NCBI GenBank assembly: GCA_964473905.1
Contig: CAYYQY010000003.1
Span: 20,546 to 84,545, forward strand
Source: an uncultured Dehalococcoidales bacterium
GTDB taxonomy: Bacteria > Chloroflexota > Dehalococcoidia > Dehalococcoidales > CAYYQY01
Length of the DNA stretch: 64,000 nt
Reading direction: 5' to 3'
The position numbers and the translations under genes were made by a program. The first letter of the stretch is position 1. Every line of letters begins with the position of its first letter. The notes below the pieces were generated by a model. It was not told the origin of the DNA. It made no database searches and saw nothing but the letters and a program-made list of their open reading frames with translations. Positions 29,369-53,716 of this stretch are shown piece by piece.

Positions 29369-30125
29369 TGTTCGCTTCCATCCCCAGTTGTTTACAGTGC
29401 TTGCAACCGGGGTCTCTTTTTACGGTAAACTCTCTGAATTGTAAATTAAGCCCATCGTAGACCAGTAATTTATTGGTCAGCAGTTTGCCGGTACCCAGGA
29501 TATACTTTATTACCTCCGTAGCCTGGATACTACCCATGATGGCTGCTGTAACGCCAACTATAGGTATTGTTGCGGCGGGTATAGCGCCGCGATATATGCA
29601 TTTCAGGCAGGCAGTTTTACCTGGGATTATGGTCGTAGCCCGGCCTTCAAAGCCATATACAGCGCCATGGAAGAAGGGTATGCCTTTGGATACGGCGGTC
29701 TTATTGAGAATAAATCTTGTCTTCAGGTTATCAACGGCATCCACTATTAAGTCACAACCATCCGTAAGCCCGAAGATATTGTCTTCGGTAATAAGCTCAT
29801 CCCTGGCTTCTACTGTCACCTCCGGGTTAATCAGGTTCAGCTTATCTACGGCTAAGTCAACCTTCATCCTGCCTATATCCTTATCCCGGTACAGTACCTG
29901 TCTATTAAGGTTGCTGAGCTCCACGCGGCCGCTATCAACCACTCGCAGCGTACCCACTCCCGCTGCTGCCAGGTAGGTGCATACTGGCGCGCCAATCCCG
30001 CCGGCGCCGGCGATGAAGACCTTGGCCCGCTTGAGTTTCTCCTGGCCGGCCTCACCGAAGCCTTCAATCATAATCTGACGGCTGTATCTTTCCCGTTCAC
30101 TTCCGGTAAGCATAGCGTTATTCAC
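29352..30125 (-). CDS. ThiF/MoeB/HesA-family adenylyltransferase (E1-like)
   Basis: 257 aa. RYSRQIMIEGFG, nucleotide loop IAGAGGIGAP, and two CxxC pairs (CLKC, CKHC) as in the zinc site of MoeB/ThiF. No rhodanese domain. Confidence 0.85.
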   Translation of the reverse strand: MNNAMLTGSERERYSRQIMIEGFGEAGQEKLKRAKVFIAGAGGIGAPVCTYLAAAGVGTLRVVDSGRVELSNLNRQVLYRDKDIGRMKVDLAVDKLNLINPEVTVEARDELITEDNIFGLTDGCDLIVDAVDNLKTRFILNKTAVSKGIPFFHGAVYGFEGRATTIIPGKTACLKCIYRGAIPAATIPIVGVTAAIMGSIQATEVIKYILGTGKLLTNKLLVYDGLNLQFREFTVKRDPGCKHCKQLGMEANNEYQD

Positions 30126-30136
30126 TCCCCGGTGCC

Positions 30137-30937
30137 TTAATCACTCTGGCTTATCTTTCCAGTTAATACCCTTGAAGGGTGACTGTATATGTTCATTCTG
30201 CTGCCGCGGACAAAACCGATTAGCGTTATACCCCGGTCGGCGGCTATCTTTACCCCCAGGGTAGTCGGTGCCGATTTGGATATGAGCACGGGGATATTTC
30301 TTCTGGCTATCTTGAGTATTATCTCCGAGGATACGCGGCCACTCGTAATCATTATACGGTCGTCCGTCGTTAAGCCGATGGCAAGACACTCGCCGATTAC
30401 CTTGTCAATGGCATTATGCCGGCCGATGTCCTCGCTGAACAGGAGAATATTTTGTCTGTCGCTCAGGGCGGCACTATGGACGCCGCCTGTTTTCCTGAAT
30501 ATCCGTGAGCGCTGCACAAAGTCATCCATAATTGTATAAATCTCAGCCGGTGATATTTGTAAGCCGGACTTTATCTCTCCGGGACTGTCGCCATTGGCAC
30601 TGGCGTAAGGCTGGAGAGTCCTGCCGCTGCTGGATGCAATAAGCTGAGGGGATGATAAATCAGGGGCTATAACCATGTTATTTCTGCTGGTTATACGGGC
30701 AAAGCCTCGCTCACTATCGATAGTGATACTATCTATATCGTCTTTACTTTTTATAAGCCCCTCTGAAACGAGGAAACCCAAGGCCAGATAGTCCAGTTTG
30801 GCCGGGGAACACAGCAGTGTTACGAGCTCCCGGTTGTCAAGTATTATGGTAATGGGTAGCTCTACGGTTACCGTATCCTTGAAGTCGCTCCTTCGCTGCT
30901 CGGTGATGCGTACTATGGGGACTTCATCTATCTCCAT
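30137..30937 (-). CDS. fdhD: FdhD/NarQ-family protein lacking the canonical Cys-pair loop
   Basis: 266 aa. LDYLALGFLVSEGLI, TGGVHSAAL and EDIGRHNAIDK match the FdhD family. Where E. coli FdhD has GRTGCGVCG, this protein has GRTLQPYAS. Confidence 0.8.
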   Translation of the reverse strand: MEIDEVPIVRITEQRRSDFKDTVTVELPITIILDNRELVTLLCSPAKLDYLALGFLVSEGLIKSKDDIDSITIDSERGFARITSRNNMVIAPDLSSPQLIASSSGRTLQPYASANGDSPGEIKSGLQISPAEIYTIMDDFVQRSRIFRKTGGVHSAALSDRQNILLFSEDIGRHNAIDKVIGECLAIGLTTDDRIMITSGRVSSEIILKIARRNIPVLISKSAPTTLGVKIAADRGITLIGFVRGSRMNIYSHPSRVLTGKISQSD

Positions 30938-35340: not shown

Positions 35341-35766
35341 TTACTCGCCGAATGCAGTAACCAAAGGGTGCTGTTCCCGGTACTCAATAAGCTCAATCAT
35401 GACGCCAAAGGTATCCTTGGGGTGGAAGGTAGCCGTCCGGGCATCGCCAATCTGCTCGCCGCCGATTTGCCGGATACCCTTTGCCTTCATTTCGGTTATG
35501 GCCGCATCCAGGTCGGGCACCTTGAAGGATATCATGGATACACCCTCTCCCTTCTGCTCCAGGAGCCGCTCGGCATTGCCGCCCGGCGTTAGCGGTGCAC
35601 ACAGGTTAATACAAGATGGTAAAGGGCCTACGGTTTGCTTAATATCAAAATTCTTGTTATCCCAGGACTGTGAAAACTCAATACCCATTACGTCGCTAAA
35701 AAGCCCTATCGCTTTCGCCAGGTCTCTTACAAAAATGGTAATGTGGTCAATCCTATCGATTTTCAC
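35341..35766 (-). CDS. VOC/glyoxalase-family protein (methylmalonyl-CoA epimerase-like)
   Basis: 141 aa. IDHITIFVRDLAKAIGLFSDVMG VOC motif. GTG start behind GGGAGG. Confidence 0.7.
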   Translation of the reverse strand: MKIDRIDHITIFVRDLAKAIGLFSDVMGIEFSQSWDNKNFDIKQTVGPLPSCINLCAPLTPGGNAERLLEQKGEGVSMISFKVPDLDAAITEMKAKGIRQIGGEQIGDARTATFHPKDTFGVMIELIEYREQHPLVTAFGE

Positions 35767-35840: not shown

Positions 35841-35870
35841 TTGCCGAACAGTCTCCATATGAGCTATAAT
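35841..35870 (+). promoter_or_regulatory. Sigma-70-type promoter of aspS
   Basis: TTGCCG (35841-35846), an 18-nt spacer, then TATAAT (35865-35870). The track's ORF start at 35841 is this -35 box. Confidence 0.45.
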
Positions 35871-35900
35871 TTAAAGCTGATACTTTTTCTGGAGGTAGTC

Positions 35901-37694
35901 TTGCTGAGAACACATAGCTGCGGTGAGCTGCGGAAGGAACATACCGGCACCAGGGTAACTCTGGCCGGTTGGGTAGACCGCCGCCGTGATCACGGGGGCC
36001 TCATATTTATTGATCTCCGGGGGCGGGACGGTATAGTCCAGGTGGTCTATAACCCGGAAGTATCAGGCATATGCCACGAAACTGCCGGCGAGATGCGCAG
36101 CGAGTACGTGGTACAGGTAACCGGTGAGGTGGCGCCCCGGCCGAGGGGAACGGAAAATCCAAGATTGCCTACGGGTGAAATAGAGGTTATTGCAGGGGAA
36201 ACCAGAATATTAAATCCGTCAATAACCCCGCCTTTTTACATCAACGAGGACATTGAGATAGAAGAGAGCCTGCGTCTTAAGTATCGCTACCTTGACATAC
36301 GGCGGGCGCGGATGAAAAACAATATATTTCTCCGACACCGGGTAGTGAAATATGTCCGTGATTTCCTGGATGCAAGAGGGTTTATTGAGGTAGAAACGCC
36401 CATCCTCATAAAAAGCACGCCGGAAGGCGCACGTGATTACCTGGTGCCAAGCCGCGTCCATCCAGGCGAGTTCTATGCTCTGCCCCAGTCGCCGCAGCAG
36501 CTTAAGCAACTGCTCATGGTGGCCGGAGTGGAGAAATATTTTCAGATAGCCAGGTGCTTCCGAGATGAAGACCTCCGCGCCGATCGCCAGCCCGAGTTTA
36601 CCCAGCTTGACATGGAAATGAGTTTCATTGAAGAGGAAGATATCATCAGCCTGATGGAAGAGATGTTCACGGCCCTTGTAACTGAAGTAAAGCCTGAAAT
36701 GAGGATGATAAAACCATTCCCTCGCCTGAAATATGCCGAGGCGATGGAGCGTTACGGGACTGATAAGCCGGACCTGCGTTTCGGCATGGAAATAAAGGGT
36801 GTATCAGACATTGTCGGTGATTCTGATTTTTCCATATTCCGTAATGCAATAAAAGGCGGTGGAGTAGTCAAAGGCATATGTGCGCCGGGCTGCGCCGGCT
36901 ATACACGGCATCAACTGGAGGAATTGAACCAGATAGTAAGAAGTTTCGGTGCCGAAGGCGTTATAAATATTTCTATAGGAGATAATGCTTCGGGCATAGA
37001 TGATTTGAGCCTTGATATGCTCCGGTCTGTTGCTATCAAATACCTCACCCTGGAGCAGGTAAAGGCAATAGCGGGGCGGCTGGCAGCGACCCCCGGAGAC
37101 CTGTTGCTCATAATGGCGGGTAAGCCGGAAATCGTCGCCATCGCATTGGGAGAGCTGCGGCTGGAGATGGGACGCCGGCTCAACCTGGCTGCTGGCGATT
37201 CGCTTGCCTTTGCTTTTATACTGGACTTTCCGTTATTCAAGTGGGATGAGAAGATGGGGTACTGGGAGACGATGCATCACCCCTTCACCGCGCCCAAGGA
37301 TGAGGATGCCTGTCTGGTGGATACCGAGCCTGGTAAGATGCGGGGTAAACACTACGACATTGTATGTAACGGCTACGAAATAGCAGGCGGTAGCCTGAGA
37401 ATTTACTCCAGCGAGATGCAGAGAAAGGTGTTCAGAATGCTGGGCTATAAAGATGCGGATATTGATGACCGCTTCGGTCATTTACTGGAGGCCTTTGATT
37501 ACGGGGCGCCGCCACACGGTGGTATTGCCTCCGGTATTGACCGCTTGGTCATGCTGCTCGCCGGAGAGCAAAACATCAGGGAGGTTATTGCTTTCCCCAA
37601 GACGCAGAGTGCTATTGATTTAACGCTGAATGCGCCTTCGGCGGTTGGCGATGAGCAGCTTAGAGAGCTGCACTTGAGAATAACAGAGGACTAG
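35901..37694 (+). CDS. aspS: Aspartate--tRNA ligase
   Basis: Class II motif FRDEDLRADRQPEFTQLD, and LRTHSCGELR N-terminus. I place the start at TTG 35901 (GGAGG at 35891-35895, 5-nt spacing) rather than the track's 35841. Confidence 0.93.
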   Translation: MLRTHSCGELRKEHTGTRVTLAGWVDRRRDHGGLIFIDLRGRDGIVQVVYNPEVSGICHETAGEMRSEYVVQVTGEVAPRPRGTENPRLPTGEIEVIAGETRILNPSITPPFYINEDIEIEESLRLKYRYLDIRRARMKNNIFLRHRVVKYVRDFLDARGFIEVETPILIKSTPEGARDYLVPSRVHPGEFYALPQSPQQLKQLLMVAGVEKYFQIARCFRDEDLRADRQPEFTQLDMEMSFIEEEDIISLMEEMFTALVTEVKPEMRMIKPFPRLKYAEAMERYGTDKPDLRFGMEIKGVSDIVGDSDFSIFRNAIKGGGVVKGICAPGCAGYTRHQLEELNQIVRSFGAEGVINISIGDNASGIDDLSLDMLRSVAIKYLTLEQVKAIAGRLAATPGDLLLIMAGKPEIVAIALGELRLEMGRRLNLAAGDSLAFAFILDFPLFKWDEKMGYWETMHHPFTAPKDEDACLVDTEPGKMRGKHYDIVCNGYEIAGGSLRIYSSEMQRKVFRMLGYKDADIDDRFGHLLEAFDYGAPPHGGIASGIDRLVMLLAGEQNIREVIAFPKTQSAIDLTLNAPSAVGDEQLRELHLRITED

Positions 37695-37720: not shown

Positions 37721-38656
37721 ATGGTTGACGTTATTGAAGTAGGTGAAAACATATACATGATAGACGACCAGGTATGTTCGGTACCCCGGATGGGCAGCGT
37801 ATATCTGATAAATGAAGAAAAGAAAGCCCTGATTGATAGTGGCCCGCCGAGTTCGGCACCGGTGGTGCTGGCGGGGCTTGAGCAGCTAGGGGTAAGACCG
37901 GAAGATATAGATTATATAGTGGCTACGCACATTCACCTGGACCACGGGGGTGGCTGTGGGGTACTGAGTAAATATATGCCCGGGGCAAAAGTGGTGGTGC
38001 ATCACAAGGGGGCTTCGTATCTGGTGGAGCCTGGAGTCCTCGTAGAAAGTGCCGTTAAAGCGCTTGGTGCCGAGGTAATAGCCCAGCATGGTGAAGTAGT
38101 ACCCGTGGAGCCAGAGAAAATTCAGGCTGTTGGCGATGATGATACGATAACCCTTGGCGAGCAGCAGGTGCTGCATTTTATAGATGCTCCGGGACACGCC
38201 CCGCATGAATTGTGCATACACGAAAAGCGAAATAACGGCATGTTTGTCGGGGATGCCATGGGTCTTTATCTGGGTGACGGCAGCGTGCTACTGCAGTGCC
38301 ATCCGCCGCCGAGCTTCAACCCGGAAGTATGTATCAGCACCATTGAGAGGCTAATAAAGTTAGACAGCGCTACCATATATTTTGCCCATTTTGGCGCCTG
38401 TAACCGGGCACAGGAGACTTACCAGAGGGCTATAGAGCAGCTTCAGGGCTACATTGACGTACTGGCTAAAGCTGACGGGAATGATAGTCTTGATGCGGCT
38501 ATTGCGGAGATAGAGGGCGTCATTAAGGCGGAACTGGAACCGATAAAAGAGACACCGCAGCTATATGAGTTCGTGGATAAGACCATCGTAACGCCCTGCA
38601 TTACCGGTCTTGTGCATTATTATAAGCGAAGATTTAACGCCAAACTGACTGAGTGA
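37721..38656 (+). CDS. MBL-fold metallo-hydrolase
   Basis: 311 aa. THIHLDHGGG metal motif. Confidence 0.75.
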   Translation: MVDVIEVGENIYMIDDQVCSVPRMGSVYLINEEKKALIDSGPPSSAPVVLAGLEQLGVRPEDIDYIVATHIHLDHGGGCGVLSKYMPGAKVVVHHKGASYLVEPGVLVESAVKALGAEVIAQHGEVVPVEPEKIQAVGDDDTITLGEQQVLHFIDAPGHAPHELCIHEKRNNGMFVGDAMGLYLGDGSVLLQCHPPPSFNPEVCISTIERLIKLDSATIYFAHFGACNRAQETYQRAIEQLQGYIDVLAKADGNDSLDAAIAEIEGVIKAELEPIKETPQLYEFVDKTIVTPCITGLVHYYKRRFNAKLTE

Positions 38657-38663
38657 GGGAGAA

Positions 38664-39980
38664 GTGAAGGTAACAAAAGATAAAATAGAAAGTAGCCAGG
38701 TGTATTTAACTATTGAAGTAGAGCCCGCCGAGGTGGAAGAGTATATGGATGCCGCCTACCGGCAGATGGTAAAGAAAGTGAACATACCCGGTTTCCGTAA
38801 GGGCAAGGCATCCCGTGATGTGCTGGAACGTTATATCGGGAAAGAGAGCCTGCTTGAAGAGGCACTCAATAATTTAGTTCCAGAAACCTACGAAAAGGCG
38901 ATTGCGGAGCAGGAGATTGAGCCTATTTCCCAGCCGCAACTGGAAATAGCGAAGACCGAGCCTATGGTCTTGAAAGTGGTTATACCGGTTAAGCCAACGG
39001 TTGAGCTTGGCGAATATTCCGGTATTGACATTAAAGCGGAACCGGTGCAGGTAACCGAGGTAGAGGTTAATAATATAATAGAAGAACTGCGTCACCGCTC
39101 TGCTGACTGGGAACCGGTAGAAAGGCCAGTAGTCATTGGTGATATGTTAACGATAGATGTTGACAGCAGTATTGACGGTAGCTCTTTTATCAACCGGGAG
39201 GGTGTCCAGTATCAGGTGCGCAGTGGTTTCCCCTATCCGGCCCCCGGCTTTGCCGAGCAGTTGGTGGATATGACGATAGATGAAGAAAAGGAGTTTGCGC
39301 TTAGTTTTCCAGAAGATTTTATCCGAACTGAGCTGGCGGGGAAGACAGCGTCGTTTACGGTGAAGATTAAAGAGGTGAAGAAGGAGAACCTGCCTGAAAT
39401 AAACGATGATTTTGCCCGTCAGATTGACCCGGAATGGGAGAGCATGGAGCAACTGAGAAATCAGATTAATACCGACCTGCTGTCCAAGGCTGAGGATGAA
39501 GCCAGGAGAGATCATGAAGAGCGGGTGGTAACCGCAGTAACCGAGCTTTCCAAAATAGAGTACCCCCCGGTACTGGTGGAAGAAGGTATAAACCGGCTTA
39601 TAGATGAGCGGCTGAGGCAACTGCAGATGGCTGATAGGGGACTGGATGAGTATCTCAAGCAGGTTAATAAAACGGAGGAGGAAGTACGGGAGGAGCTAAG
39701 GCCAATGGCGGTAAAGCAGCTTACCGGCTCACTGGTACTGGAGCATGTGGCTGAAAAGGAAAACATTGAGGCATGTGAAGCTGAGATTGATACCGAGATT
39801 CAAACCTTGACAAGCACGATGGATGAGAGTAAAAAAGAGGACATGGGGAAATTCCTGAACATGGCTGAAACTCGAAATCAAATCAAGCAGATGCTTATAA
39901 CCAAGAACACGGTAAAACGACTGGTGGAAATAGCTGAAACAAACAGTGGCGGGGAAGAAAGCAGTGCCGAAAGTGATTGA
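38664..39980 (+). CDS. tig: Trigger factor
   Basis: 438 aa. N-terminal ribosome-binding region with GFRKGKA and an FKBP-like middle domain. GTG start. Confidence 0.9.
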   Translation: MKVTKDKIESSQVYLTIEVEPAEVEEYMDAAYRQMVKKVNIPGFRKGKASRDVLERYIGKESLLEEALNNLVPETYEKAIAEQEIEPISQPQLEIAKTEPMVLKVVIPVKPTVELGEYSGIDIKAEPVQVTEVEVNNIIEELRHRSADWEPVERPVVIGDMLTIDVDSSIDGSSFINREGVQYQVRSGFPYPAPGFAEQLVDMTIDEEKEFALSFPEDFIRTELAGKTASFTVKIKEVKKENLPEINDDFARQIDPEWESMEQLRNQINTDLLSKAEDEARRDHEERVVTAVTELSKIEYPPVLVEEGINRLIDERLRQLQMADRGLDEYLKQVNKTEEEVREELRPMAVKQLTGSLVLEHVAEKENIEACEAEIDTEIQTLTSTMDESKKEDMGKFLNMAETRNQIKQMLITKNTVKRLVEIAETNSGGEESSAESD

Positions 39981-40021
39981 TATAGGTTTATATAAGTTAT
40001 GGCAAGGAGGGCTGTATCCAA

Positions 40022-42055
40022 ATGGACGTAGTCAAGACCGTCTGTAATATGTGTGATGTTAGGTGCGGTATAGATGCCTATGTTGAGAACGGGCAGATAG
40101 TAAAAATTGATGGTATGCCGGAGCACCCGCATAACTCCCTCTGTGTTAAGGCATATGCTATTCCGGAGCTTGTTCATTCCAAAGACCGGTTGACCAGCCC
40201 CATGCTTAAGGTAAACGGAGAGTTCAAGGATATTACCTGGGACGAGGCGTTTACTGTTATCGCTGATAATTTGAACAGAGTTAAGGAGAAGTACGGGCCG
40301 CAGGCGCTCAATGTCCATGTTGGTAATGCCTATATCGGTACCCAGACAGAGAAAATAGTAAGGCGTTTTAGCGATCTTTTTGGCACGCCCAACTACTCTA
40401 CGGGTGGTTCGTACTGCTTTCTGGCCAGTACTCTGGGGCACATGATAACATGCGGGGCACACGTGCTCCCGGATTTTGAGGGTAATCCCAGGTGCATGGT
40501 TATGTGGGCTAGCAACCGTACTCAGAGCAGTCCTCCCTACGCCGAGGTGATTAGCCGCTGGGTAAGTGATAAAACCAAGTTAATAGTGATCGATCCCAGA
40601 ATTACCAAACGCGCTAAAGAGGCGGATATATATGCTCAAATCAGGCCGGGAACGGATTGTGCTCTGGCACTCGGTATGCTGAATGTTATTATCGCTGAAG
40701 AGCTTTATGATAAACAGTTTGTAGAGCAGTGGACTGTTGGCTTTGAACAGTTAGCTCAACATGTAAAGACATACTCGCCCGAGAAGGTTGAGACGATAAC
40801 GTGGGTACCGGCAGGCACTATCCGGGATATGGCCCGCCTGTACGCCACGAGTAAGCCGGCCTGCATCTCGCTGGGTATTCCCACCAATCACAGCACTAAC
40901 GGGGTTCAAACCGTCAGGGCTATTACCATACTGATGGCTATTACGGGTAACATTGATGTAGCCGGTGGCGATATTATTACACCATCACTGTGGCAGTCAA
41001 GCATCCGGGTTAAAGGCAGCATACCTGATTTAAGCACTTCGCTCGGTGCTGACTACCCTATATTCAGGAGATATGCGGTAGAGTCAACAGCTTCGCCTCT
41101 TACCGAGACAATACTCAGCGAAGTACCTTACCCGGTAAAAGCCTTGATTTTTGCTGGCTGTAACCCACTAATGACCATGCCGAATACTAACAAGGTAAGA
41201 CGTGCCTTTGAAAAGCTGGATTTCATGGCGGTTATAGACATATTTATGACGGATACGGCCAGGATGGCTGACCTGGTACTGCCTGGAACGAGCTTTGCGG
41301 AAAGGGAGGACTTAAGGCACTGGCGTGCGGATGGGCTAAGCCTGGTAGTGGCGACCAATAAGGTGGTGGAACCGCCTGGAAACTGCATGGAAGACTGGAA
41401 AATATGGGCGGCGCTGGCCGAAAAGATGGGTTATGGTGAGTATTTTCCCTGGAAGACGACCGTAGATCTGCTTGAATACCTGCTTAAACCGTCCGGTATT
41501 ACGCTGGAGCAGCTCAGGGCAAACCCGGGTGGTGTCTACTATGCCGGGAAAAAATATAAAAAATATCTGGAGGAAGGATTTGCTACACCGTCTAAAAAGG
41601 TAGAGCTGTATTCCGAACTGATGGAGCAGCACGGGTATGAACCACTACCATCATTTAAAGAGCCGGTGGAAAGTCCGGTAAGCCAGCCTGATTTAGCCGC
41701 GAGCTATCCTTTAATAATGATTACCGGTACCCGGACAGCGGGTTATCTCCACTCTGAGTACCGCAATTTGCCCAGCCTGCGTAGGCTTATGCCGGAGCCG
41801 ATAATTGAAATAAATACGGATACGGCGCATAATCTTAATATAACGGATGGAGACCGGGTTAAAGTTGAATCAAGAAGGGGAAGCGTTGAGTTAAAGGCCA
41901 GAGTGCATAATGATATACATCCTGAGGTGGTATCCATGCAGCACGGGTGGAGTGAGGCTAACGCTAATGTGTTGACCAATGATGAGGTCCGTGACCCGGT
42001 ATCGGGCTTCCCCGCGTTTAAGGGTGTTTTGTGCAGAGTGGTTAAGGTAGGCTAA
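40022..42055 (+). CDS. Cytoplasmic molybdopterin (Mo/W-bisPGD) oxidoreductase, stand-alone catalytic subunit, substrate unknown
   Basis: 677 aa. N-terminal [4Fe-4S] motif CNMCDVRC...(x24)...C (Cys8, Cys11, Cys15, Cys41). No twin-arginine signal. The candidate metal ligand is Cys132 in GGSYCFLAS. AGGAGG lies upstream. Confidence 0.85.
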   Translation: MDVVKTVCNMCDVRCGIDAYVENGQIVKIDGMPEHPHNSLCVKAYAIPELVHSKDRLTSPMLKVNGEFKDITWDEAFTVIADNLNRVKEKYGPQALNVHVGNAYIGTQTEKIVRRFSDLFGTPNYSTGGSYCFLASTLGHMITCGAHVLPDFEGNPRCMVMWASNRTQSSPPYAEVISRWVSDKTKLIVIDPRITKRAKEADIYAQIRPGTDCALALGMLNVIIAEELYDKQFVEQWTVGFEQLAQHVKTYSPEKVETITWVPAGTIRDMARLYATSKPACISLGIPTNHSTNGVQTVRAITILMAITGNIDVAGGDIITPSLWQSSIRVKGSIPDLSTSLGADYPIFRRYAVESTASPLTETILSEVPYPVKALIFAGCNPLMTMPNTNKVRRAFEKLDFMAVIDIFMTDTARMADLVLPGTSFAEREDLRHWRADGLSLVVATNKVVEPPGNCMEDWKIWAALAEKMGYGEYFPWKTTVDLLEYLLKPSGITLEQLRANPGGVYYAGKKYKKYLEEGFATPSKKVELYSELMEQHGYEPLPSFKEPVESPVSQPDLAASYPLIMITGTRTAGYLHSEYRNLPSLRRLMPEPIIEINTDTAHNLNITDGDRVKVESRRGSVELKARVHNDIHPEVVSMQHGWSEANANVLTNDEVRDPVSGFPAFKGVLCRVVKVG

Positions 42056-42120
42056 GGAGGGAATAATAACCCTGTTTAACGTGAAAAGGAAAGAGAAGTA
42101 ACAGGAGGGAGACGAGAGAA

Positions 42121-42729
42121 ATGGAAAATATACCGACGAATGTTATTCCAATGGTGATTGAAAGTAGTCCCAGGGGTGAACGGGCCTTCGATATATACTC
42201 GCTTCTGCTTAAAGACCGTATTGTAATGCTGGGTATGCCCATTAATGACCAGGTGGCCAATGTTATCGTAGCCCAGCTTCTATATCTGGAACGTGAAGAT
42301 CCGGATAAGGACATAAGCCTTTATATTCACTGCCCGGGTGGTGTTATAAGCGCCGGGCTGGCTATCTATGATACCATGCAGCTCATACGTCCCGATGTAT
42401 CCACCATATGTGTCGGGCTGGCTGCCAGCATGGGGACGGTGCTCCTCTGTGCCGGGGCCAAGGGTAAGCGCTACGCTTTGCCCAATGCCACCATCCACAT
42501 GCACCAGGCTTTCGGCGGTGCTCAGGGGCAAGCTTCTGATATAGAAATTGCTGCCCGCGAGATTATGCGTATGCAGGAGATAATCAGAAACACGCTGGCA
42601 AAACATACCGGTCAGCCGCTGGAAAAAATAACTCACGATACAGACCGGGATTTCTACCTGAATCCGGAGCAGGCGGTAGAGTACGGGATTGTGGATGAAA
42701 TCCTGACCAAGCCGGTAGATAGCAAGTAG
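42121..42729 (+). CDS. clpP: ATP-dependent Clp protease proteolytic subunit
   Basis: 202 aa. Catalytic Ser in GLAASMG, His in IHMHQAFGG, Asp in DTDRDFY. Confidence 0.95.
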
Positions 42730-42771
42730 CCGAATATAGATATATAAAAATTAAATGCAGTAAGTTAGAGT

Positions 42772-42806
42772 GGAGGAAGGCAAGCAGGCCTTCCTCCGTG
42801 CTTTTA
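42772..42806 (+). terminator. Intrinsic terminator after clpP
   Basis: GGAGGAAGGC (42772-42781), loop AAGCAG, GCCTTCCTCC (42788-42797), followed by GTGCTTTTA. Confidence 0.6.
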
Positions 42807-46281: not shown

Positions 46282-47793
46282 TTAAAAACACAGTTTACCC
46301 GGGTTCATAATGTTATTCGGGTCACTCTTATTCTTGAGTTTCTTCAGATATTCGGCGTAAGTCCCGGAGCGACTGTACATAATTTCAGCCCAGGGTCCGT
46401 AGGGTCTATCAAAGAAACCACCCATATCAACCACTACTTCGCTGGCCTCTTTGTAGAGAGCCTTAACCGCTTGACTTTCCGCCGCGTCGTCAAGGTTGCA
46501 GTGAAAGTCAAATTCGCAGTATATGGTTCTCGCCCGCTCTATGGGCAGCAGATAGCCGCCGATATCACTGGTCGGGTAGTTGTATTTACAGGCTACGTCG
46601 TAGATAGCTGCCTCCAGTAAGCCTACCGTGTCCGGGCTCGAGTGGAACATAAGCCCGTGGCATGAGCCTTTATAACCGAATCGCTTCTGCATCCGGCCAG
46701 GCAGTATCACTTCCTCCTTGATGATATTGCTCAGTCCGGTTATAGCACCTACGGTATTCTTTAGCTCGCAACCACTTTCAACCGCTACGTCCTTCAGGTC
46801 CAGTTCCTGGTAGGCTAGTTTCTCATCGGCGCGTCTTGCCCAGCCGGTGAGGCAAACAATTATCGTCCAGGGTGGCAGGTTACCTCTGATGCTTTCAAAC
46901 TGCATGACCTGCTCTTCTGTCCAGGGGTTGGCGCCTCTATTCCCGACGTAAGTTCCCTTTTTCAGCTTATCGTCCTCACCCGGTATGTCTACCACCAGGG
47001 CGGCCAGGTCAAAGCTGTTAAAGGCAAAACATTCCAGTCCCAGTTCCTTGCGCTCAATACGCTGTATGATATGGGTCGCCTGGCTTACTGTCTCCGCCGG
47101 TATAAAGATGACTTTTTGGGCGGTCGGTAGTGGCAGGAGCCTTATTGCCATCTGTGTCACGATGCCGAAGGTGCCCTGAGAGCCCATGTAAAGGCGATAA
47201 AAGTCAAATGCCGGTCCGTCCGGGGCCATAGCACGTGATTTCTGTGTTGGCGGATGACCTATCGTGAACAGCTCGCCGGTAGGCATTAACATGTCGTAGG
47301 TACTGAAAAGCTCATTACCGAAGACGAAATCAGGAGCGGTAACCACCGGGTTCCTCTCTATATAGTCCACCAGCACCGAAGCCGAAGGCGGACTGGTAAG
47401 CGGTGCGGCTACTCTCAGGCCGTATTTTTCCAGTTCCGGTTGAAGCTGGGCATAGGTTACTCCGGCTTCAATCAGGGCGTGCCAGTTCCGCTCGTCTATA
47501 TAGGTAATCTTGTTGAGCCTCTGCAGGTTTACCAGGATACCGCCGATACTGGGAACGGCACCGCCGTGAAAGTCTGTCCCCGAGCTATAGGGGACAACCG
47601 GCATCAGGAGTTTGTTGGCCAGTCTGACTATTTCCTGGACCTCCGCTACAGTACCCGGCGTGACTACATAGTTAGGCCTTGTCTGCGGGACAAAACTCTG
47701 GTCGCGTGAATATTTATCCAGGACTAAGGGGTCATCGGAGGCATTATCTTTGCCTACGATAGCTGCTAATTCCTCAAGGATGCTATCACTCAC
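46282..47793 (-). CDS. FAD-linked oxidase/dehydrogenase subunit, type B, copy 1 (GlcD/D-lactate dehydrogenase-like)
   Basis: 503 aa. FAD_binding_4-type loop VVPYSSGTDFHGGAVP, and a C-terminal DPNNIMNPGKLCF. Confidence 0.8.
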   Translation of the reverse strand: MSDSILEELAAIVGKDNASDDPLVLDKYSRDQSFVPQTRPNYVVTPGTVAEVQEIVRLANKLLMPVVPYSSGTDFHGGAVPSIGGILVNLQRLNKITYIDERNWHALIEAGVTYAQLQPELEKYGLRVAAPLTSPPSASVLVDYIERNPVVTAPDFVFGNELFSTYDMLMPTGELFTIGHPPTQKSRAMAPDGPAFDFYRLYMGSQGTFGIVTQMAIRLLPLPTAQKVIFIPAETVSQATHIIQRIERKELGLECFAFNSFDLAALVVDIPGEDDKLKKGTYVGNRGANPWTEEQVMQFESIRGNLPPWTIIVCLTGWARRADEKLAYQELDLKDVAVESGCELKNTVGAITGLSNIIKEEVILPGRMQKRFGYKGSCHGLMFHSSPDTVGLLEAAIYDVACKYNYPTSDIGGYLLPIERARTIYCEFDFHCNLDDAAESQAVKALYKEASEVVVDMGGFFDRPYGPWAEIMYSRSGTYAEYLKKLKNKSDPNNIMNPGKLCF

Positions 47794-47860
47794 TTCTCTA
47801 CCCCCTTTCTTGAGTTATGCTGATAGTAAACAGCACTCACCAGTATTTGTTTCTTGGACA

Positions 47861-49393
47861 TTATTGCTCCAGCCTGACAAGCTTCCCCGGGTTCATGGTG
47901 TCGTTGGGGTCAAAGACGTTCTTTATCTGGGTTACCCAGTGCTTGGCGTTGGGACCTACCCTTGGGGAGTATATGGTAAGCACGGGTTCCATATAGTAGT
48001 ATCCCAGGTCAAGCAGGTCTTGCTTGGGTGTGCGGACAAAGCCGTCTATATTCATATCGCGGGCTGAACTCGCTTCCTCGTAATCAGACTGGTCAAAGAC
48101 CGTATCGTCTTCAAACAGCGCGTAATACCCCCGCTCAAAGATGTAAACCCAGGGGGTCTCCTCGTCGAACATGTAGTGGGAATGTCTCATGACTATATCC
48201 TGAGACCGCTCGTAAAACTCCCGGTGGTTGTCTATGTGACCGCAGCCGAGTTTGATAGAAGAAAAGCTGCCCCGGCGCTGGAAACGGCTGCCGCAGCCGT
48301 CGCGGAAGGCATCGCCATGCCAGGTTGCCATCTCTTCATTAAGGTCATCTCTGAACTTGCCGCCGGTCTCCTTGACGATATCCCGGAGAACGTTCTCTTC
48401 GTGGTCCAACTGCCTTGTCGACGAGATACCGGCGTTGATGACGTAAATCATGTGTCGGGGGAAGAACCCCTCGTGCCATCTCTTTTCCGCAAGCTCTTCG
48501 GTTTGCTGTGTCATACCGGTAACCCAACCATTTGAAGCCCCGTTAAGGTGGGTGCCGATGCCGGAGTGCGCGATTTCGTACATGGCTTCATTCATGGGCT
48601 CAATATCGGGGTATTCTACGTAGTAAATCCTGTGGTTGGCAGGTAACGGCGGCCTGTTGTAAACGGTCTCCTGTGGCCATTCGCCTCCGGCCCAGGGATG
48701 CAGCTTCATGGTGGCCTCTACGATAACCGCCATACCGCCATGATTGCAGAACTCAAAAATACCCTTGAGGTCAGGCCCAGGTCCCTGGCACCAGAAGTTG
48801 CCGCAGGCGGGTATGGTAGCCGAACCGGTCTTCAGAATATCACCGTTGGGTAAAACCAGGGTGAGGTTGGCTATTGAGCGCAGACCGACACCGTAGGCCA
48901 GCGAACTCTGCCAGGTACCGCTGTTAATAATGTTGGATAAGAGTCCGCAGCTACCCGGGGCTAACGGGGTGCCCCCGTTCCACAGCCCTCGCTTCATGGT
49001 TTCAGCCTGAATACGGGCGAAACTAACGTAGGGCTGAATGGTAGCCGTCATGGTATCTTCGTTGATTTCAAGAATCTTGTCCATTCGTTTCAGGTCAAGA
49101 GAAATGGTGCCCGGTTCACTCGGTATGCAGAGGGATACCATGTTAGCACCGGTACTTATGGGGATTACCTTTAGCCCGTACCTGTTAGCGATGCGGACTA
49201 CCCCTTGCACCTCCTCCGTGCTTGCCGGTAATACCACCAGGTCCGGAATAGCGGAGGGGTCTTGCTTGTATCTCTTCATAATTCCGGGGAAGGCCCCGTC
49301 CTTGGAGTATGTCTGGCGAACCATGGGGTCATCGCTGATAAAATCAGGGCCGACCACCGCGGCTATTGCTTGATAAACATGAGGTTCAATCAA
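47861..49393 (-). CDS. FAD-linked oxidase/dehydrogenase subunit, type A, copy 1
   Basis: 510 aa. PCMH-type FAD domain with a divergent loop VIPISTGANMVSLCIP, and a C-terminal DPNDTMNPGKL. TTG start behind AAGGAGGTG. Confidence 0.75.
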   Translation of the reverse strand: MIEPHVYQAIAAVVGPDFISDDPMVRQTYSKDGAFPGIMKRYKQDPSAIPDLVVLPASTEEVQGVVRIANRYGLKVIPISTGANMVSLCIPSEPGTISLDLKRMDKILEINEDTMTATIQPYVSFARIQAETMKRGLWNGGTPLAPGSCGLLSNIINSGTWQSSLAYGVGLRSIANLTLVLPNGDILKTGSATIPACGNFWCQGPGPDLKGIFEFCNHGGMAVIVEATMKLHPWAGGEWPQETVYNRPPLPANHRIYYVEYPDIEPMNEAMYEIAHSGIGTHLNGASNGWVTGMTQQTEELAEKRWHEGFFPRHMIYVINAGISSTRQLDHEENVLRDIVKETGGKFRDDLNEEMATWHGDAFRDGCGSRFQRRGSFSSIKLGCGHIDNHREFYERSQDIVMRHSHYMFDEETPWVYIFERGYYALFEDDTVFDQSDYEEASSARDMNIDGFVRTPKQDLLDLGYYYMEPVLTIYSPRVGPNAKHWVTQIKNVFDPNDTMNPGKLVRLEQ

Positions 49394-49410
49394 TTCAACT
49401 CACCTCCTTT

Positions 49411-50646
49411 TCATAACCCCTGCAGTACAAGGTCCAGCAAATCATACATTTTCATCTTGTTGCCGTTTCTCTGGATAGCCTCGCCCAGGTTTTCTTCACA
49501 GTGGGGGCAGTAAGTAACCAGGGCTTCAGCACCGGTGCTCTCTGCCTCCTCAATGCGCTTGTCCGCTGTCCACTGTGCCAGTTCCAGGTATCCATCCCGG
49601 AGCCAGCTACCGGCACCGCAACACCACGAATCATCCCTGTTTCTATCCATTTCGGTTAGTGTAATACCGGGAATACTGTTCAGGATATTCCTGGGTGGCT
49701 CATAGATACCGGAGAAAGCTCCCGTGCCGCTGATACCATAATCGCTGATTCTGCCGAGGTGGCAGGGGTCGTGGTAGGTCACGTTCAGGTTAACCGGCTT
49801 GGTTAGTTTGAGTTTACCCTGGGTTATGAGCTCGTCTGTGAACTCAAGGATATGGACAACCTCAAAGTTCATCTTTTCACCTACCTCGGGGTAGTCGCGC
49901 TTAAAAGTGCTGTAGCAGAAGGGGCAGATGGTAACCAGCTTTTCGATTCCCATATCATTGAACATCTTGATGTTCTCTTTGGCGAAAGCGTGGAACGAGT
50001 CCACATCGCCCATTCGGAGCGAGGGATTGCCACAGCAGCGCTCTTTCTCGCCGAGGATACCGACGTCAACACCGGCCTTGATGAGAACGGTAGCAGCGTC
50101 CTGAGCCATTTTCTCGGCTGAGGGGTCGCGGAGCGGGAAACAGCCGACATAGAGCAGGGTCTTGGTCTTGGTGCCTGTGCCGGAGATACCGTCGGCCAGG
50201 CTGGCGGGCAGACCCTTCATCCAGTTAATTCTCTCGGCGTCGTGTTTCCTGTAGGGGTTCATGTATTCTCTAAGGTCATCCAGGAAGGTTTTGAAGCCGC
50301 CGGGCGGGTTCAGACCGTCCTTGAGTGCCTTGGCCCTCATTGCCTGGATTATCTGTGTGGGTTGCATCTCTTTGATACGTCCGCATATATAATCACAGGC
50401 GCCGCAGAGCGGGTCCTGATAAATTACCTCAAGCATGCTGTCAGACCAGTCCAGTTCGCCCTCAATTAAGGCACGGGCGATATCCATTTTACCCTGAGCA
50501 GCGTAACAGTCAAACTTGTATCGGGATATACTGGGGCAAATCTGGTAGAACTCTGCGTTCTTGGTATGCCAGGGGAAGACCTGCTTACACTGGCTATCGC
50601 GAAAGCAGTTCCAGGTCCACCGACGGTAATCTTTAAGTTCTTTCAT
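49411..50646 (-). CDS. Soluble (Fe-S)-binding protein with two CCG domains (HdrD/GlcF-like), copy 1
   Basis: 411 aa. CCG motifs ...YVGCFP..CCGNP..ICPFCY and ...HDPCHL..CCGAG..YCPHCE. N-terminal non-canonical Cys pattern. ATG behind GGAGGA. Confidence 0.8.
   Translation of the reverse strand: MKELKDYRRWTWNCFRDSQCKQVFPWHTKNAEFYQICPSISRYKFDCYAAQGKMDIARALIEGELDWSDSMLEVIYQDPLCGACDYICGRIKEMQPTQIIQAMRAKALKDGLNPPGGFKTFLDDLREYMNPYRKHDAERINWMKGLPASLADGISGTGTKTKTLLYVGCFPLRDPSAEKMAQDAATVLIKAGVDVGILGEKERCCGNPSLRMGDVDSFHAFAKENIKMFNDMGIEKLVTICPFCYSTFKRDYPEVGEKMNFEVVHILEFTDELITQGKLKLTKPVNLNVTYHDPCHLGRISDYGISGTGAFSGIYEPPRNILNSIPGITLTEMDRNRDDSWCCGAGSWLRDGYLELAQWTADKRIEEAESTGAEALVTYCPHCEENLGEAIQRNGNKMKMYDLLDLVLQGL
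49907..50249. repeat. Near-identical tract shared with 51426-51768 (inside the CCG-protein gene, copy 1)
   Basis: Base-by-base comparison at a fixed offset of 1519 nt gives 343 nt with a single mismatch (49954 A versus 51473 G, synonymous GAT/GAC). Positions 49955-50249 are a perfect 295-nt match. Confidence 0.9.
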
Positions 50647-50882
50647 ACCTTATCCTCCTCATATCTTGAGAAGTGGAAGCGGAGTAGCATGTACTGGCAA
50701 AATACGAATACGTGATACTATCTCTTCCTTATCCATGTCATTCTACTTGCCGGAAAATCTGTAAGCCTAGCCCGGACAAAAAATTCCGAGTGTCATGCCC
50801 GGTATCGTAAGTATAAGGTCTGAATATATACAGGCTGCCGTATTACCGGACAGCATAAATGACATAGCTCTCGCCGTTAATA

Positions 50883-50919
50883 GAAGAGTAAGGTTCTTTT
50901 TTATAGAACCTTACTCTTC
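50883..50919 (-). terminator. Perfect 15-bp hairpin just downstream of the CCG-protein gene, copy 2 (possible terminator separating the two modules)
   Basis: GAAGAGTAAGGTTCT (50883-50897), 7-nt loop, AGAACCTTACTCTTC (50905-50919). Starts 10 nt after the stop codon at 50930. No clear U-tract. Confidence 0.35.
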
Positions 50920-50929
50920 GCTATCTTTA

Positions 50930-52171
50930 TTACAGTGCCTGCAGTACAAGGTCCAGCAGGTCATACATTTGCATCTTGTTGCCGTTTCTCTGGATAGCCT
51001 CGCCCAGGTTTTCTTCACAGTGGGGGCAGTAGGTAACCAGCGCTTCAGCACCGGTGCTTTCTGCCTCCTCAATGCGCCTGTCGGCTGTCCACTGTGCCAT
51101 GTCAAGATATCCGTCCCGGAGCCAGCCACCGGCACCGCAGCACCAGGAATCATCCTTGTTGCGGTACATCTCGGTAAGCGTTACGCCGGGAATGCTGTTC
51201 AGGATGTTTCTTGGCTGTTTATACTTGCCAATGAAATCATCCGTACCACTGGTACCATTACCGCTGATTCTGCCGAGGTGGCAGGGGTCGTGGTAGGTAA
51301 CGTTCAGGTTAACCGGCTTTGTCAGTTTGAGTTTGCCCTGTGCGATAAGTTCATCCACCATATCCAGGATGTGGATAACCTCGAAGTTCATCTTCTCGTC
51401 AACCATGGGATAATCGCGGGTAAAGGTGCTGTAGCAGAAGGGGCAGATGGTAACCAGCTTTTCGATTCCCATGTCATTGAACATCTTGATGTTCTCTTTG
51501 GCGAAAGCGTGGAACGAGTCCACATCGCCCATTCGGAGCGAGGGATTGCCACAGCAGCGCTCTTTCTCGCCGAGGATACCGACGTCAACACCGGCCTTGA
51601 TGAGAACGGTAGCAGCGTCCTGAGCCATTTTCTCGGCTGAGGGGTCGCGGAGCGGGAAACAGCCGACATAGAGCAGGGTCTTGGTCTTGGTGCCTGTGCC
51701 GGAGATACCGTCGGCCAGGCTGGCGGGCAGACCCTTCATCCAGTTAATTCTCTCGGCGTCGTGTTTCCGGAAGGGGTTCATGTATTCTCTGAGGTCATCC
51801 AGGAAGGTTTTAAAGCCGCCGGGCGGGTTCAGGCCGTCCTTGAGTGCCTTGGCCCTCATTGCCTGGATAACCCGGGTTGGTTGCATCTCAGTAATACGTC
51901 CGCAGTTATAATCACAGGCGCCGCAGAGCGGGTCCTGATAGATTACCTCAAGCAGTTTATCTGACCACTCTATTTCACCTTCAATCATGGCACGGGCTAA
52001 ATCGCCCATTTTCCCTTGAGAGGAATAGGCATCAAATTTATAACGTGTCAGAGTCGGGCAGATATCATCATAGTCTGCATTCTTGAGGTGCCAGGTGAAG
52101 ACATGTTTACATGTGCTATCGCGAAAGCAGTTCCAGCACCAATGTCTGTACTCTTCCAGTTCCTTGATCAT
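50930..52171 (-). CDS. Soluble (Fe-S)-binding protein with two CCG domains (HdrD/GlcF-like), copy 2
   Basis: 413 aa. About 85% identical by eye to copy 1, with the same CCG motifs. Confidence 0.8.
   Translation of the reverse strand: MIKELEEYRHWCWNCFRDSTCKHVFTWHLKNADYDDICPTLTRYKFDAYSSQGKMGDLARAMIEGEIEWSDKLLEVIYQDPLCGACDYNCGRITEMQPTRVIQAMRAKALKDGLNPPGGFKTFLDDLREYMNPFRKHDAERINWMKGLPASLADGISGTGTKTKTLLYVGCFPLRDPSAEKMAQDAATVLIKAGVDVGILGEKERCCGNPSLRMGDVDSFHAFAKENIKMFNDMGIEKLVTICPFCYSTFTRDYPMVDEKMNFEVIHILDMVDELIAQGKLKLTKPVNLNVTYHDPCHLGRISGNGTSGTDDFIGKYKQPRNILNSIPGVTLTEMYRNKDDSWCCGAGGWLRDGYLDMAQWTADRRIEEAESTGAEALVTYCPHCEENLGEAIQRNGNKMQMYDLLDLVLQAL
51426..51768. repeat. Near-identical tract shared with 49907-50249 (inside the CCG-protein gene, copy 2)
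   Basis: See the partner repeat at 49907-50249: 343 nt with 1 mismatch, and a 295-nt perfect core (51474-51768). Confidence 0.9.
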
Positions 52172-52191
52172 TTAGACTCCTCCTTTTGAGA

Positions 52192-53715
52192 TTAGAAGCA
52201 GAGCTTGCCCGGATTCATAATGTTGTTGGGGTCCAGTTGCGCCTTTACTTTCTTAAGGTACTCGGCATAGTTACCGCTACGCCGGTACATCATGTCTGCC
52301 CAGACTCCATAGGGCCTATCGAAGAACGCGCCAGCATCGATAGCAGCTTCACTGGCTTCATGGAATAAAGCCTTGACTCTTTCCACGTCAGCGGCACTGG
52401 CTGATTCACAGTGCAGGTCATAGACGCAGTAGAAAGAGCGCGCCCGTTCCACCGGCTGGACATAAGCGCCAACATCACCCCATGAATAGTTGTATTTGGC
52501 AGCTACCTTGGCTATAGCTTCTTCAATCTTGGAGAGTGCAGCACCGGTACTGTAGAACATTAGACCGTGGCAAGAGCCTCTGTAACCAAATCTCTTTTGC
52601 ATTCTCCATGGGAGGAGCATTTCCTCCTCGATTATTTTTCCAAGACCCGATATACCGCCTACGGATGGCTTTAGCTCAAAGCCAACTTCAGCAGACAGGT
52701 CTCTGAGGTCGAGTTCCTGGTATTGAACTTTCTCCTCGGGATGTCTTGCCCAACCTGTAAGCGTAATTACCAGGGTCCAGGGGGGCAGGGCATGTCTCAG
52801 TGTCTCGAAACGCTTTCTTTGAGCCTGAGACCAGGGCTTGGCACCAGTGTTACCGATGTATGAGCCTTGCTTCAAGCTCTTGGTATCGGCGGCGTCCTCG
52901 TCAACGGCGAGGGTAGCCAGGTCAAAGCTGTTGAGCGCGAAGCATTCAAAACCGAGTTCCTGGCGCTGAATGCGTTTCATAGCGCCTATAACGTCAGCGG
53001 CATTAGCAAAGGCAACGAAGAACACTTTCTGTGCTTTGGGTTTCGGGATTACTCTCACGTTAATTTCATAAACAGTACCCAGTGTTCCCTCTGCACACAT
53101 GAACATTCGGTAGAAGTTCAGGCCGGGGCCAAAGATATGCGAGTGTGGGGCCCCTTCAACTGCCGGGTTACCCATGGTGAAGCTGTCACCGTTGGGTATT
53201 ACGACACGCATAGTCTGCATCTGCTCATTGCCGTAAATGAAGTCTGCCGCGCACGGTACCGGCTCTCTCTCAACGTATGAAATGAGGGCTGATGCCGAGG
53301 GAGGAGCCATAAGTGGCGTGGGCAATCTAAGGTCGTGCTTATCGAGCTCTTCTTTCAGCTGGGCAAAGGTTAAACCGGGGCCGATACTTACCCAGTGATA
53401 GAAAGTGTCAAGCTCGGATATCTTGTTCATTTGACTCAGGTCAACCACGATACCGCCCTGAGTGGGTACGGAGCCCCCGTGGAAATCGGTAGCGGAGCTA
53501 CGCGGCACCAGGGGCATGAGTTGCTCGTTGGCGAATTTAACGATGTTTTGCAGTTCCTCGAGTGACTTGGGTTTTACCACATAGTGGGGCTTGCGGGCCG
53601 GGGTAAAGCTCTGGTCACGGGAATATTTTTCTAAGGTAGCAGTGTCGCTGGACACCCCTTTGGCGCCGACTATTTTATTCAGTCCATCTTTAATGGCATC
53701 TTTAACTTCACTCAT
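52192..53715 (-). CDS. FAD-linked oxidase/dehydrogenase subunit, type B, copy 2
   Basis: 507 aa. LVPRSSATDFHGGSVP and a C-terminal DPNNIMNPGKLCF. Roughly half identical to copy 1 by eye. Confidence 0.8.
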   Translation of the reverse strand: MSEVKDAIKDGLNKIVGAKGVSSDTATLEKYSRDQSFTPARKPHYVVKPKSLEELQNIVKFANEQLMPLVPRSSATDFHGGSVPTQGGIVVDLSQMNKISELDTFYHWVSIGPGLTFAQLKEELDKHDLRLPTPLMAPPSASALISYVEREPVPCAADFIYGNEQMQTMRVVIPNGDSFTMGNPAVEGAPHSHIFGPGLNFYRMFMCAEGTLGTVYEINVRVIPKPKAQKVFFVAFANAADVIGAMKRIQRQELGFECFALNSFDLATLAVDEDAADTKSLKQGSYIGNTGAKPWSQAQRKRFETLRHALPPWTLVITLTGWARHPEEKVQYQELDLRDLSAEVGFELKPSVGGISGLGKIIEEEMLLPWRMQKRFGYRGSCHGLMFYSTGAALSKIEEAIAKVAAKYNYSWGDVGAYVQPVERARSFYCVYDLHCESASAADVERVKALFHEASEAAIDAGAFFDRPYGVWADMMYRRSGNYAEYLKKVKAQLDPNNIMNPGKLCF

Positions 53716-53716
53716 C

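Follow-up and report, generated by a model that had tools for sequence, protein, structure and literature searches.

The window analysed here is a 64,000-nucleotide (nt) stretch from an uncultured Dehalococcoidales bacterium (positions 20,546 to 84,545 of the forward strand of contig CAYYQY010000003.1, assembly GCA_964473905.1), and the gene of interest, hereafter mopB, encodes an enzyme of the molybdopterin-binding MopB superfamily and lies between tig (trigger factor) and clpP. It reads through 677 amino acids from an ATG start with no internal stop. The surrounding co-directional cluster is headed by aspS (aspartyl-tRNA synthetase) and continues with a metallo-beta-lactamase-fold (MBL) protein gene, tig, mopB, and clpP (Table 1). 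The intergenic gaps are 26 nt (aspS-MBL), 7 nt (MBL-tig), 41 nt (tig-mopB), and 65 nt (mopB-clpP), and mopB and clpP each have a Shine-Dalgarno sequence. No terminator-like site was found in the tig-mopB or the mopB-clpP gap; the only strong one is a hairpin 3' of clpP, which is the likely end of the transcription unit. The GC content of mopB (0.48-0.50) is the same as that of the neighbouring genes. An internal promoter for clpP was considered and rejected, as promoter-like matches within mopB (12 vs. a shuffled expectation of 11.9) show no excess, and an Rfam search of the window gave three tRNAs only, with no molybdenum cofactor (Moco) or other riboswitch. 3' of clpP, the next gene encodes a PHP-domain protein and runs in the opposite direction, no ClpX-like open reading frame (ORF) turned up among the window ORFs scanned with Pfam, and no iron-sulfur (FeS), cytochrome or membrane partner gene adjoins mopB. 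From the spacing of the genes alone, it is plausible that mopB is co-transcribed with aspS, the MBL gene, tig, and clpP. On the gene order, the gaps, the separate ribosome-binding site, the absence of clpX and of partner genes, and the lack of a terminator before the end of clpP, the initial annotation of this DNA is borne out, and the order tig-mopB-clpP is confirmed by the coordinates together with Pfam, TIGR00115, and NF001368.

The protein is covered by three Pfam domains: Molybdop_Fe4S4 at residues 1-52 (55 bits vs. a cutoff of 22.7), Molybdopterin at residues 56-468 (186 vs. 24 bits), and Molydop_binding at residues 565-669 (100 vs. 26.8 bits). No NCBIfam model scored above its cutoff, the best being TIGR01591 (Fdh-alpha; 393.5 vs. 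666.25 bits), with PhsA at 332 vs. 694 bits. The initial annotation gave the motifs CNMCDVRC, NSLCVKA, and GGSYCFLAS correctly, and there is no room for a twin-arginine translocation (Tat) signal, since the Fe-S motif begins at residue 8. In the family alignment, C8, C11, C15, and C41, as well as C132 and K43, align with Cys9, Cys12, Cys16, and Cys46, Cys141, and Lys48 of the acetylene hydratase (AH) of Pelobacter (Syntrophotalea) acetylenicus (PDB 2E7Z). The AlphaFold2 (AF2) model has a pLDDT of 90.6 and a pTM of 0.90, and Foldseek comparison with solved MopB structures gives TM-scores (TM) of 0.77-0.92, in agreement with the four-domain MopB fold. The top fold match is AH (TM 0.92, root-mean-square deviation (rmsd) 2.7 Å), while PsrA, ArrA, and the formate dehydrogenases (FDHs) have a TM of 0.85-0.88 and an rmsd of 3.9-5.0 Å. 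AH is also the top match among all PDB sequences (346.7 bits, ~33% identity), followed by cytoplasmic FDHs (263-272 bits) and PsrA (236 bits). With all cofactor hallmarks intact, the ORF is, as judged from its sequence, a functional, soluble, cytoplasmic single-subunit enzyme with a molybdenum or tungsten (Mo/W) bis(molybdopterin guanine dinucleotide) (bis-MGD) centre and a [4Fe-4S] cluster.

The resemblance to AH is extensive. Both proteins are single-subunit cytoplasmic MopB enzymes in which the [4Fe-4S] cluster is N-terminal, the metal ligand is a Cys and a relay Lys is present, they share the N-S-[LI]-C-x-K context of the fourth cluster Cys, and the window protein has an Asp after the second Cys. 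However, the sequences around the two proteins fall into separate groups. When the window protein was used as the query, hundreds of relatives were retrieved (53-74% identity). They stem from Chloroflexota and Desulfobacterota bins and are named no further than 'molybdopterin-dependent oxidoreductase'. A search with AH returned another set of more than 120 proteins (42-99% identity, 660-1566 bits). A review describes Cys141 and Asp13 as conserved residues that are particular to the AH subfamily, whose enzyme tolerates the D13E exchange but is inactive as D13A (PMC12096430), and in the crystal structure Trp179 hydrogen-bonds Asp13 (PMC7970554). In the AH clade, Asp13 is invariant in 117 of 117 proteins, and Cys141, Trp179, and Trp293 each in 120 of 120. 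In contrast, the Trp179 position is a gap in 40 of the 43 window-family members, the window protein included, and the window protein has Leu284 at the Trp293 position, which varies across its family. The connector between domains II and III of AH 'adopted an entirely different assembly', redirecting access to the metal (PMC6013536); by a proxy for its length, it spans 53 residues in the window family and 62-65 in FDHs, against 84 in the AH clade. The window family also lacks the C-terminal insertion of AH, and at the site where AH reads F-Q-S it has retained L-H-S, the common pterin motif.

The separation is likewise seen in a neighbour-joining tree of 143 taxa, built from one alignment, rooted on two FDHs, and bootstrapped 200 times, in which the all-Asp AH clade is monophyletic in 200/200 bootstraps and the window family lies outside it. 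Profile hidden Markov models (HMMs) were trained reciprocally on half of each group, with the rest held out. The AH-clade HMM gives the window protein 526 bits vs. 1028-1290 bits for held-out AH-clade members, and the window-family HMM gives it 1150 bits vs. 439-580 bits for AH-clade members. FDHs score higher on the window-family HMM than on the AH-clade HMM. The AH-likeness reported in the initial annotation is thus upheld in that, among characterised proteins, AH is closest in both sequence and fold, and fails in that the protein falls outside the AH clade and is without both tryptophans and the long connector. Taken together with the synteny described below, these sequence comparisons make it likely that the window family is a large uncharacterised MopB family, separate from the AH clade and with AH as its nearest characterised neighbour, and that mopB has occupied the tig-clpP slot of a Dehalococcoidia-like lineage by vertical inheritance. 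The literature yielded nothing on the function of the family or on this slot.

Two observations concern the AH clade itself. The tree places the MopB proteins of L007 and L008 (Shewanella basaltis and S. metallivivens), which carry the motif C-A-T-C-D-I-S-C and Trp at the AH 179 and 293 positions, within the AH clade, whose HMM gives them 1065 bits. Both can be taken as candidate enzymes of that clade from cultured Shewanella. Another AH-clade protein, P0136 (919 amino acids, 51% identity to AH), bears fused Flavodoxin_2 / FMN_red domains, a hint that coupling to a flavin reductase may serve some members of the clade, either in redox turnover or in reductive activation.

The arrangement tig-mopB-clpP is shared by ~18 distinct contigs, with 48-74% identity of MopB to the window protein; labels among the relatives are Dehalococcoidales, Dehalococcoidia or Chloroflexota. 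A scan of genome contigs with the window protein yielded 6 loci only, and the synteny in named genomes is accordingly thin. This order, or the part of it within the contig, is seen in L001, L010-L012, L017-L023, L025, L037, L092, L095, and L097, frequently preceded by aspS and the MBL gene and followed by PHP-efp-M24. The spacing in these relatives, no looser than in the window, is 21-63 nt, and the tig and mopB gene calls overlap in L092 and L095. The grouping of the loci in a tree of the aspS + tig backbone is largely that of the MopB tree. Two look-ups anchored on tig, which selected loci irrespective of MopB, found L098 and L099, where an identical backbone has tig and clpP directly adjacent, separated by a 40-50 nt gap that holds a ribosome-binding site only. 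Judged by tig (66%), L098 is the closest relative of the window, and the backbone tree makes the two sisters; L099 is sister to L019. The loci without MopB are nested among those with it. There are no flanking repeats or gene remnants. A recent horizontal insertion was rejected on the grounds of GC content like that of the neighbours, the lack of repeats and remnants, and the broad agreement of the MopB and backbone trees. The simplest history read from these sequences would be that mopB is ancestral in the tig-clpP slot of a Dehalococcoidia-like lineage, has been inherited vertically, and was lost cleanly at least twice. The suggestion that the gene had been inserted between tig and clpP therefore has to be given up as an account of a recent event, as the relatives share the arrangement as an ancestral, inherited order.

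Since mopB was cleanly deleted at least twice, it is dispensable for tig and clpP, and the losses argue against an obligatory role in proteostasis. Such a role, e.g., the reductive repair of oxidised residues such as methionine sulfoxide on nascent or damaged proteins, would explain why a place in aspS-MBL-tig-clpP has been conserved across deep divergence, and why L004, a member of the closest subclade that has left the slot, is found directly 3' of a cyclophilin-type peptidyl-prolyl isomerase (PPIase). However, two lineages with an identical backbone have lost the gene cleanly, other family members sit in catabolic clusters, and the variable MBL gene next door suggests that the operon merely tolerates accessory insertions. 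The known MopB-type sulfoxide reductases (BisC, DmsA, TorZ/MtsZ) have a Ser ligand to the metal, whereas the ligand here is Cys. A proteostasis-linked function is consequently considered most improbable. As regards the MBL gene, it is present at the aspS-tig junction in L001, L012, L018, L092, L095, and L098 and absent in L019-L021, L037, and L099, and from this pattern the aspS-tig-clpP operon seems to tolerate accessory genes at its junctions.

Table 1. Features of the mopB locus and of the encoded protein in the window (residue numbers refer to the MopB protein).
Feature	Position	Strand	Basis or remark
MoeB/ThiF-family adenylyltransferase-like gene, adjoining fdhD	29352-30125	-	window ORF scan
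FdhD gene (bis-MGD sulfurtransferase/chaperone), 9 kb upstream of mopB	30137-30937	-	TIGR00129, 201.6 bits vs. cutoff 140.9
aspS (aspartyl-tRNA synthetase), heads the co-directional cluster	35841-37694	+	Pfam tRNA-synt_2, GAD, OB
MBL-fold protein gene	37721-38656	+	Pfam Lactamase_B, 96.5 bits
tig (trigger factor)	38664-39980	+	TIGR00115, 341.7 bits vs. cutoff 180.2
Shine-Dalgarno AAGGAGGG of mopB, 10 nt 5' of ATG	40004-40011	+	sequence
mopB (MopB-superfamily enzyme, 677 amino acids)	40022-42055	+	Pfam, alignment, AF2 model
Fe-S motif C8-N-M-C11-D12-V-R-C15	40043-40066	+	four cluster Cys invariant in family
D12 codon GAT	40055-40057	+	acidic only in closest subclade
Fourth cluster ligand C41	40142-40144	+	invariant in family
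Relay Lys43	40148-40150	+	Lys in 42/43 family members
Cys132-Phe133, inferred Mo/W ligand and next residue	40415-40420	+	Cys in 43/43 family members; aligns with AH Cys141
Arg166-Thr-Gln168, G-x-N-P loop (loop bearing Trp179 in AH)	40517-40525	+	subclade-specific Pro to Arg and Glu to Gln
Asn289	40886-40888	+	Asp/Glu in 107/111 other family members; Asp298 invariant in sampled AH clade
Shine-Dalgarno AGGAGG of clpP	42103-42108	+	sequence
clpP, final gene of the cluster	42121-42729	+	Pfam CLP_protease, 264.8 bits; NF001368, 311.5 bits vs. cutoff 249
Terminator-like hairpin, 12-bp stem (7 GC), then T-rich tail	42770-42799	+	strongest such site in region

The Cys-Asp motif had been the basis for proposing a hydratase, and this is not supported by the distribution of the Asp. 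An acid stands at position 12 in only 9 of ~120 family members, namely the window protein and P0002-P0009 (68-74% identity), where it reads D, E, E, E, E, E, D, E, and D, respectively; 199 of 200 bootstraps recover this D/E subclade as monophyletic. The residue is L, P, S, G, T, H, N or V in the 111 further family members that were examined. Even among genes in the tig-clpP slot it is D, E, L, P, H, M, S or Q, and L092 (Pro12) and L095 (Asp12) are two contigs of one sample with the same extended backbone. Because Asp12 varies among orthologues, even in the same slot, it is not a catalytic residue that defines the family. AH differs in this respect too, as its Asp is kept throughout its clade.

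A genuine AH, in which Asp12 would activate a tungsten-bound water and acetylene would be hydrated to acetaldehyde as in P. acetylenicus, is regarded as extremely unlikely. It would account for the best match among solved structures by both sequence and fold, for the alignment of Asp12 with Asp13 and of Cys132 with Cys141, and for a D/E swap within the subclade that parallels the tolerated D13E mutant. On the other hand, Trp179 and Trp293, invariant in 120 AH-clade proteins, are missing, the connector is short, the tree and the HMMs place the protein outside the AH clade, and positional orthologues are without the acid. In addition, Asp298 of AH, invariant in the sampled clade, is Asn289 here, and the AH pocket is tightly tuned to acetylene (PMC6013536).

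The D/E subclade differs from the rest of the family at several further positions. Residue 166 changes from Pro to Arg, 168 from Glu to Gln, 136 from Arg/Lys to Ser, 289 from Asp/Glu to Asn, 386 from Trp to Met, 434 from Tyr to Trp, and 287 from Ser to Pro. When subclade-specific substitutions were counted at columns otherwise conserved (n = 11), 5 of the 11 were within 5 residues of the named active-site positions of AH vs. 33 of 443 in the background (odds ratio 10, p = 0.001). We read this as a coordinated remodelling of the active site in the subclade, of which Asp12 would be one part rather than a signature of AH. D/E12 is possibly paired with Arg166, in a contact that would replace the Asp13-Trp179 contact of AH. 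Coupling of the two residues through independent co-occurrence was looked for and rejected as a statistical demonstration, since there is none outside the D/E subclade; the independent clades with C-x2-C-D/E (L049, L059, L063, L090, L041, and L055) have Pro at 166. Among these, L049, L059, L063, and L090 form a separate clade at ~39% identity with the motif C-R-M-C-D-D-R-C, where the Asp was acquired independently and Pro166 and the Glu at position 289 are kept; L049 and L059 adjoin Fer4/thiamine pyrophosphate (TPP) and Pyr_redox_2 genes. Two members of the D/E subclade itself are outside the tig-clpP slot: L004 (P0008), 3' of the PPIase gene mentioned above and 5' of a GH3-family gene, and L096 (P0009), between phosphoenolpyruvate carboxykinase (PEPCK) and a radical-SAM gene and near a NiFe hydrogenase.

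To our knowledge, AH is the only known non-redox Mo/W enzyme. The D/E subclade may have independently evolved a non-redox hydratase or lyase that acts on another small substrate through D/E12 and Arg166 at a metal-bound water. An acid gained and kept at the Asp13 position, an Arg166 in the loop that bears Trp179 in AH, the loss of Glu168, Asp289, and Arg136, the enrichment of substitutions near the active site, and an operon with no redox partner would all suit such an enzyme. However, the changes are those of one clade and thus count as one evolutionary event, the independently derived C-x2-C-D/E clades have retained Pro166, and an Asp-Arg salt bridge would be expected to keep the Asp deprotonated, when some mechanisms proposed for AH need it protonated. 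This makes the hydratase or lyase reading rather unlikely. The wider proposal, i.e., that the subclade represents a second, independently derived non-redox or otherwise new MopB chemistry built on the D/E12-Arg166 pair, with constitutive expression as part of a proteostasis operon of uncultivated Dehalococcoidia, is likewise judged improbable.

Stand-alone cytoplasmic MopB enzymes such as FdhF and NarB use soluble carriers, and a missing dedicated partner therefore does not imply non-redox chemistry. In the mechanism proposed here, the substrate would react at the Mo/W centre ligated by Cys132, and Lys43 and the [4Fe-4S] cluster would relay electrons to a soluble carrier, for example ferredoxin. 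Expression of mopB from a transcript shared with aspS-MBL-tig-clpP would, by virtue of that co-transcription, be constitutive. The invariance of the cluster Cys residues and the presence of the relay Lys in 42/43 members of the window family lend indirect support to a redox enzyme, as do the FDH-like traits that AH has lost and this family has kept, namely the L-H-S pterin motif, the short connector, and the FDH HMM scores. Distant family members adjoin ferredoxin-domain/TPP proteins (14 loci) as well as FAD/NAD oxidoreductases, aldehyde:ferredoxin oxidoreductases, reductases of the old yellow enzyme (OYE) type, and FrhB-like proteins, and further neighbours of theirs include CoA ligases, TetR regulators, and TRAP/ABC transporters. 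The FdhD gene 9 kb upstream of mopB, which scores above its cutoff, points indirectly the same way. On balance, a ferredoxin-linked redox enzyme is the leading reading of the chemistry, and we give a redox enzyme that uses a soluble carrier an even chance of being correct.

Several points weigh against these readings. The redox-type neighbours belong to distant paralogous clades (35-57% identity) and not to tig-linked genes, and both the cluster and the Lys are retained in AH, which catalyses no net redox reaction, so that their conservation is no proof of electron transfer. Co-transcription is deduced solely from gene spacing. The tree that separates the family from AH is a neighbour-joining tree from a single alignment with two FDH outgroups only. 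Moreover, all nine subclade members retain an acid, D or E, at position 12, and AH tolerates precisely this swap.

Among redox enzymes, the FDHs of the FdhF type (1AA6, 9T1S_L, and 7BKB_D) are similar to the window protein in size, domain order, cytoplasmic location, cluster, Lys, and position of the Cys/selenocysteine (Sec) ligand, with ~31-32% identity and a TM of 0.85. They differ in that the window protein has Phe133 in place of the His that follows the ligand, has no Sec, and scores below the TIGR01591 cutoff, and in that mopB has no adjacent hydrogenase, F420 or NAD module. The residue after the ligand Cys is F, Y, A or W in the family, and His in 7 of 120 members. The catalytic Arg of FDHs (P-L-R-G-Q-N-N-V-Q-G) is set opposite the near-invariant Arg329 by MAFFT and opposite Leu323, six residues before it, by HMMER and the local GNI...P anchors; on these alignments, Leu323 is the most likely counterpart. 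A divergent FdhF-type FDH or CO2 reductase working with ferredoxin would agree with TIGR01591 as the top NCBIfam match, with FDHs as the next-best PDB matches, with the MAFFT alignment, and with the FdhD gene 9 kb upstream. The score is, however, far under the 666-bit cutoff, and the missing His and Sec and the placement of Leu323 opposite the FDH Arg by HMMER and the local anchors speak against it, so that this function is considered highly unlikely and the first description of the protein as not being an FDH is sustained.

The FdhD gene and its MoeB/ThiF-like neighbour are flanked by Thi4 and NadA. FdhD is a possible maturation factor for the window MopB; as a conserved partner of the family it was rejected, as it adjoins a family member in only 1 of ~85 loci (L071). 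In the MopB-less L099, the block NMO/FabK-like-ThiF-FdhD-Thi4-NadA is missing between TGT and an AbpE-like gene.

The respiratory reductases are more distant from the window protein. PsrA (2VPW) and PhsA share with it the MopB fold and the Cys ligand, with a TM of 0.87 and the second-best NCBIfam match (332 bits). In contrast to PsrA/PhsA, it has no Tat signal and no partner genes of the PsrB/PsrC type, and its score is well short of the 694-bit cutoff. Unlike Psr/Phs/Arr-type respiratory reductases in general, it is encoded beside tig and clpP and not beside FeS or membrane subunits.

Surveys of MopB proteins contain a broad 'AH cluster' that they attribute to acetylenotrophy (PMC10100899, PMC7858054), and 'acetylene hydratase-like' genes were noted earlier on Chloroflexi scaffolds (PMC3971608). 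A best match to AH, even together with a Cys-Asp motif, does not identify an AH. Trp179, Trp293, the long connector between domains II and III, and an Asp conserved across orthologues can serve as discriminators, and with their use acetylenotrophy would not be over-called in bins of Chloroflexota and Desulfobacterota. The hundreds of sequences of the window family (48-74% identity) make up a large cytoplasmic Mo/W family with no characterised representative, common in subsurface Dehalococcoidia. Its branch with the remodelled active site is a reasonable, though unsurprising, target for enzymology.

A distant clade of the family at 38-41% identity (L016, L033, L048, L064, L065, L070, L072, L073, and related loci) has the motif C-T-[IL]-C-Y-H-S-C and repeatedly adjoins an aldehyde:ferredoxin oxidoreductase, a TetR regulator, and AMP-dependent ligases. 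By gene content, this pairing would suit a pathway that produces or consumes aldehydes.

At the head of the cluster, the tblastn alignments of aspS to relatives start at residue 23, and the first ~22 residues (35841-35906) have no counterpart. The listed extension with its TTG start overlaps the end of a divergent glyoxalase-like ORF (35341-35766, minus strand). The real start of aspS is probably ~22 codons 3' of the listed TTG, near codon 23 (...LLRTHSCGELR). Elsewhere in the window, the minus strand at 46282-55276 carries four FAD_binding_4 genes (GlcD / D-lactate-dehydrogenase-like) and two CCG-domain genes (HdrD/GlcF-like) in tandem. From the order of its domains, this array looks like a duplicated three-gene module, [FAD-FAD-CCG] x2. 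L092 has an FAD_binding_4 gene too, located 3' of a XerC gene.

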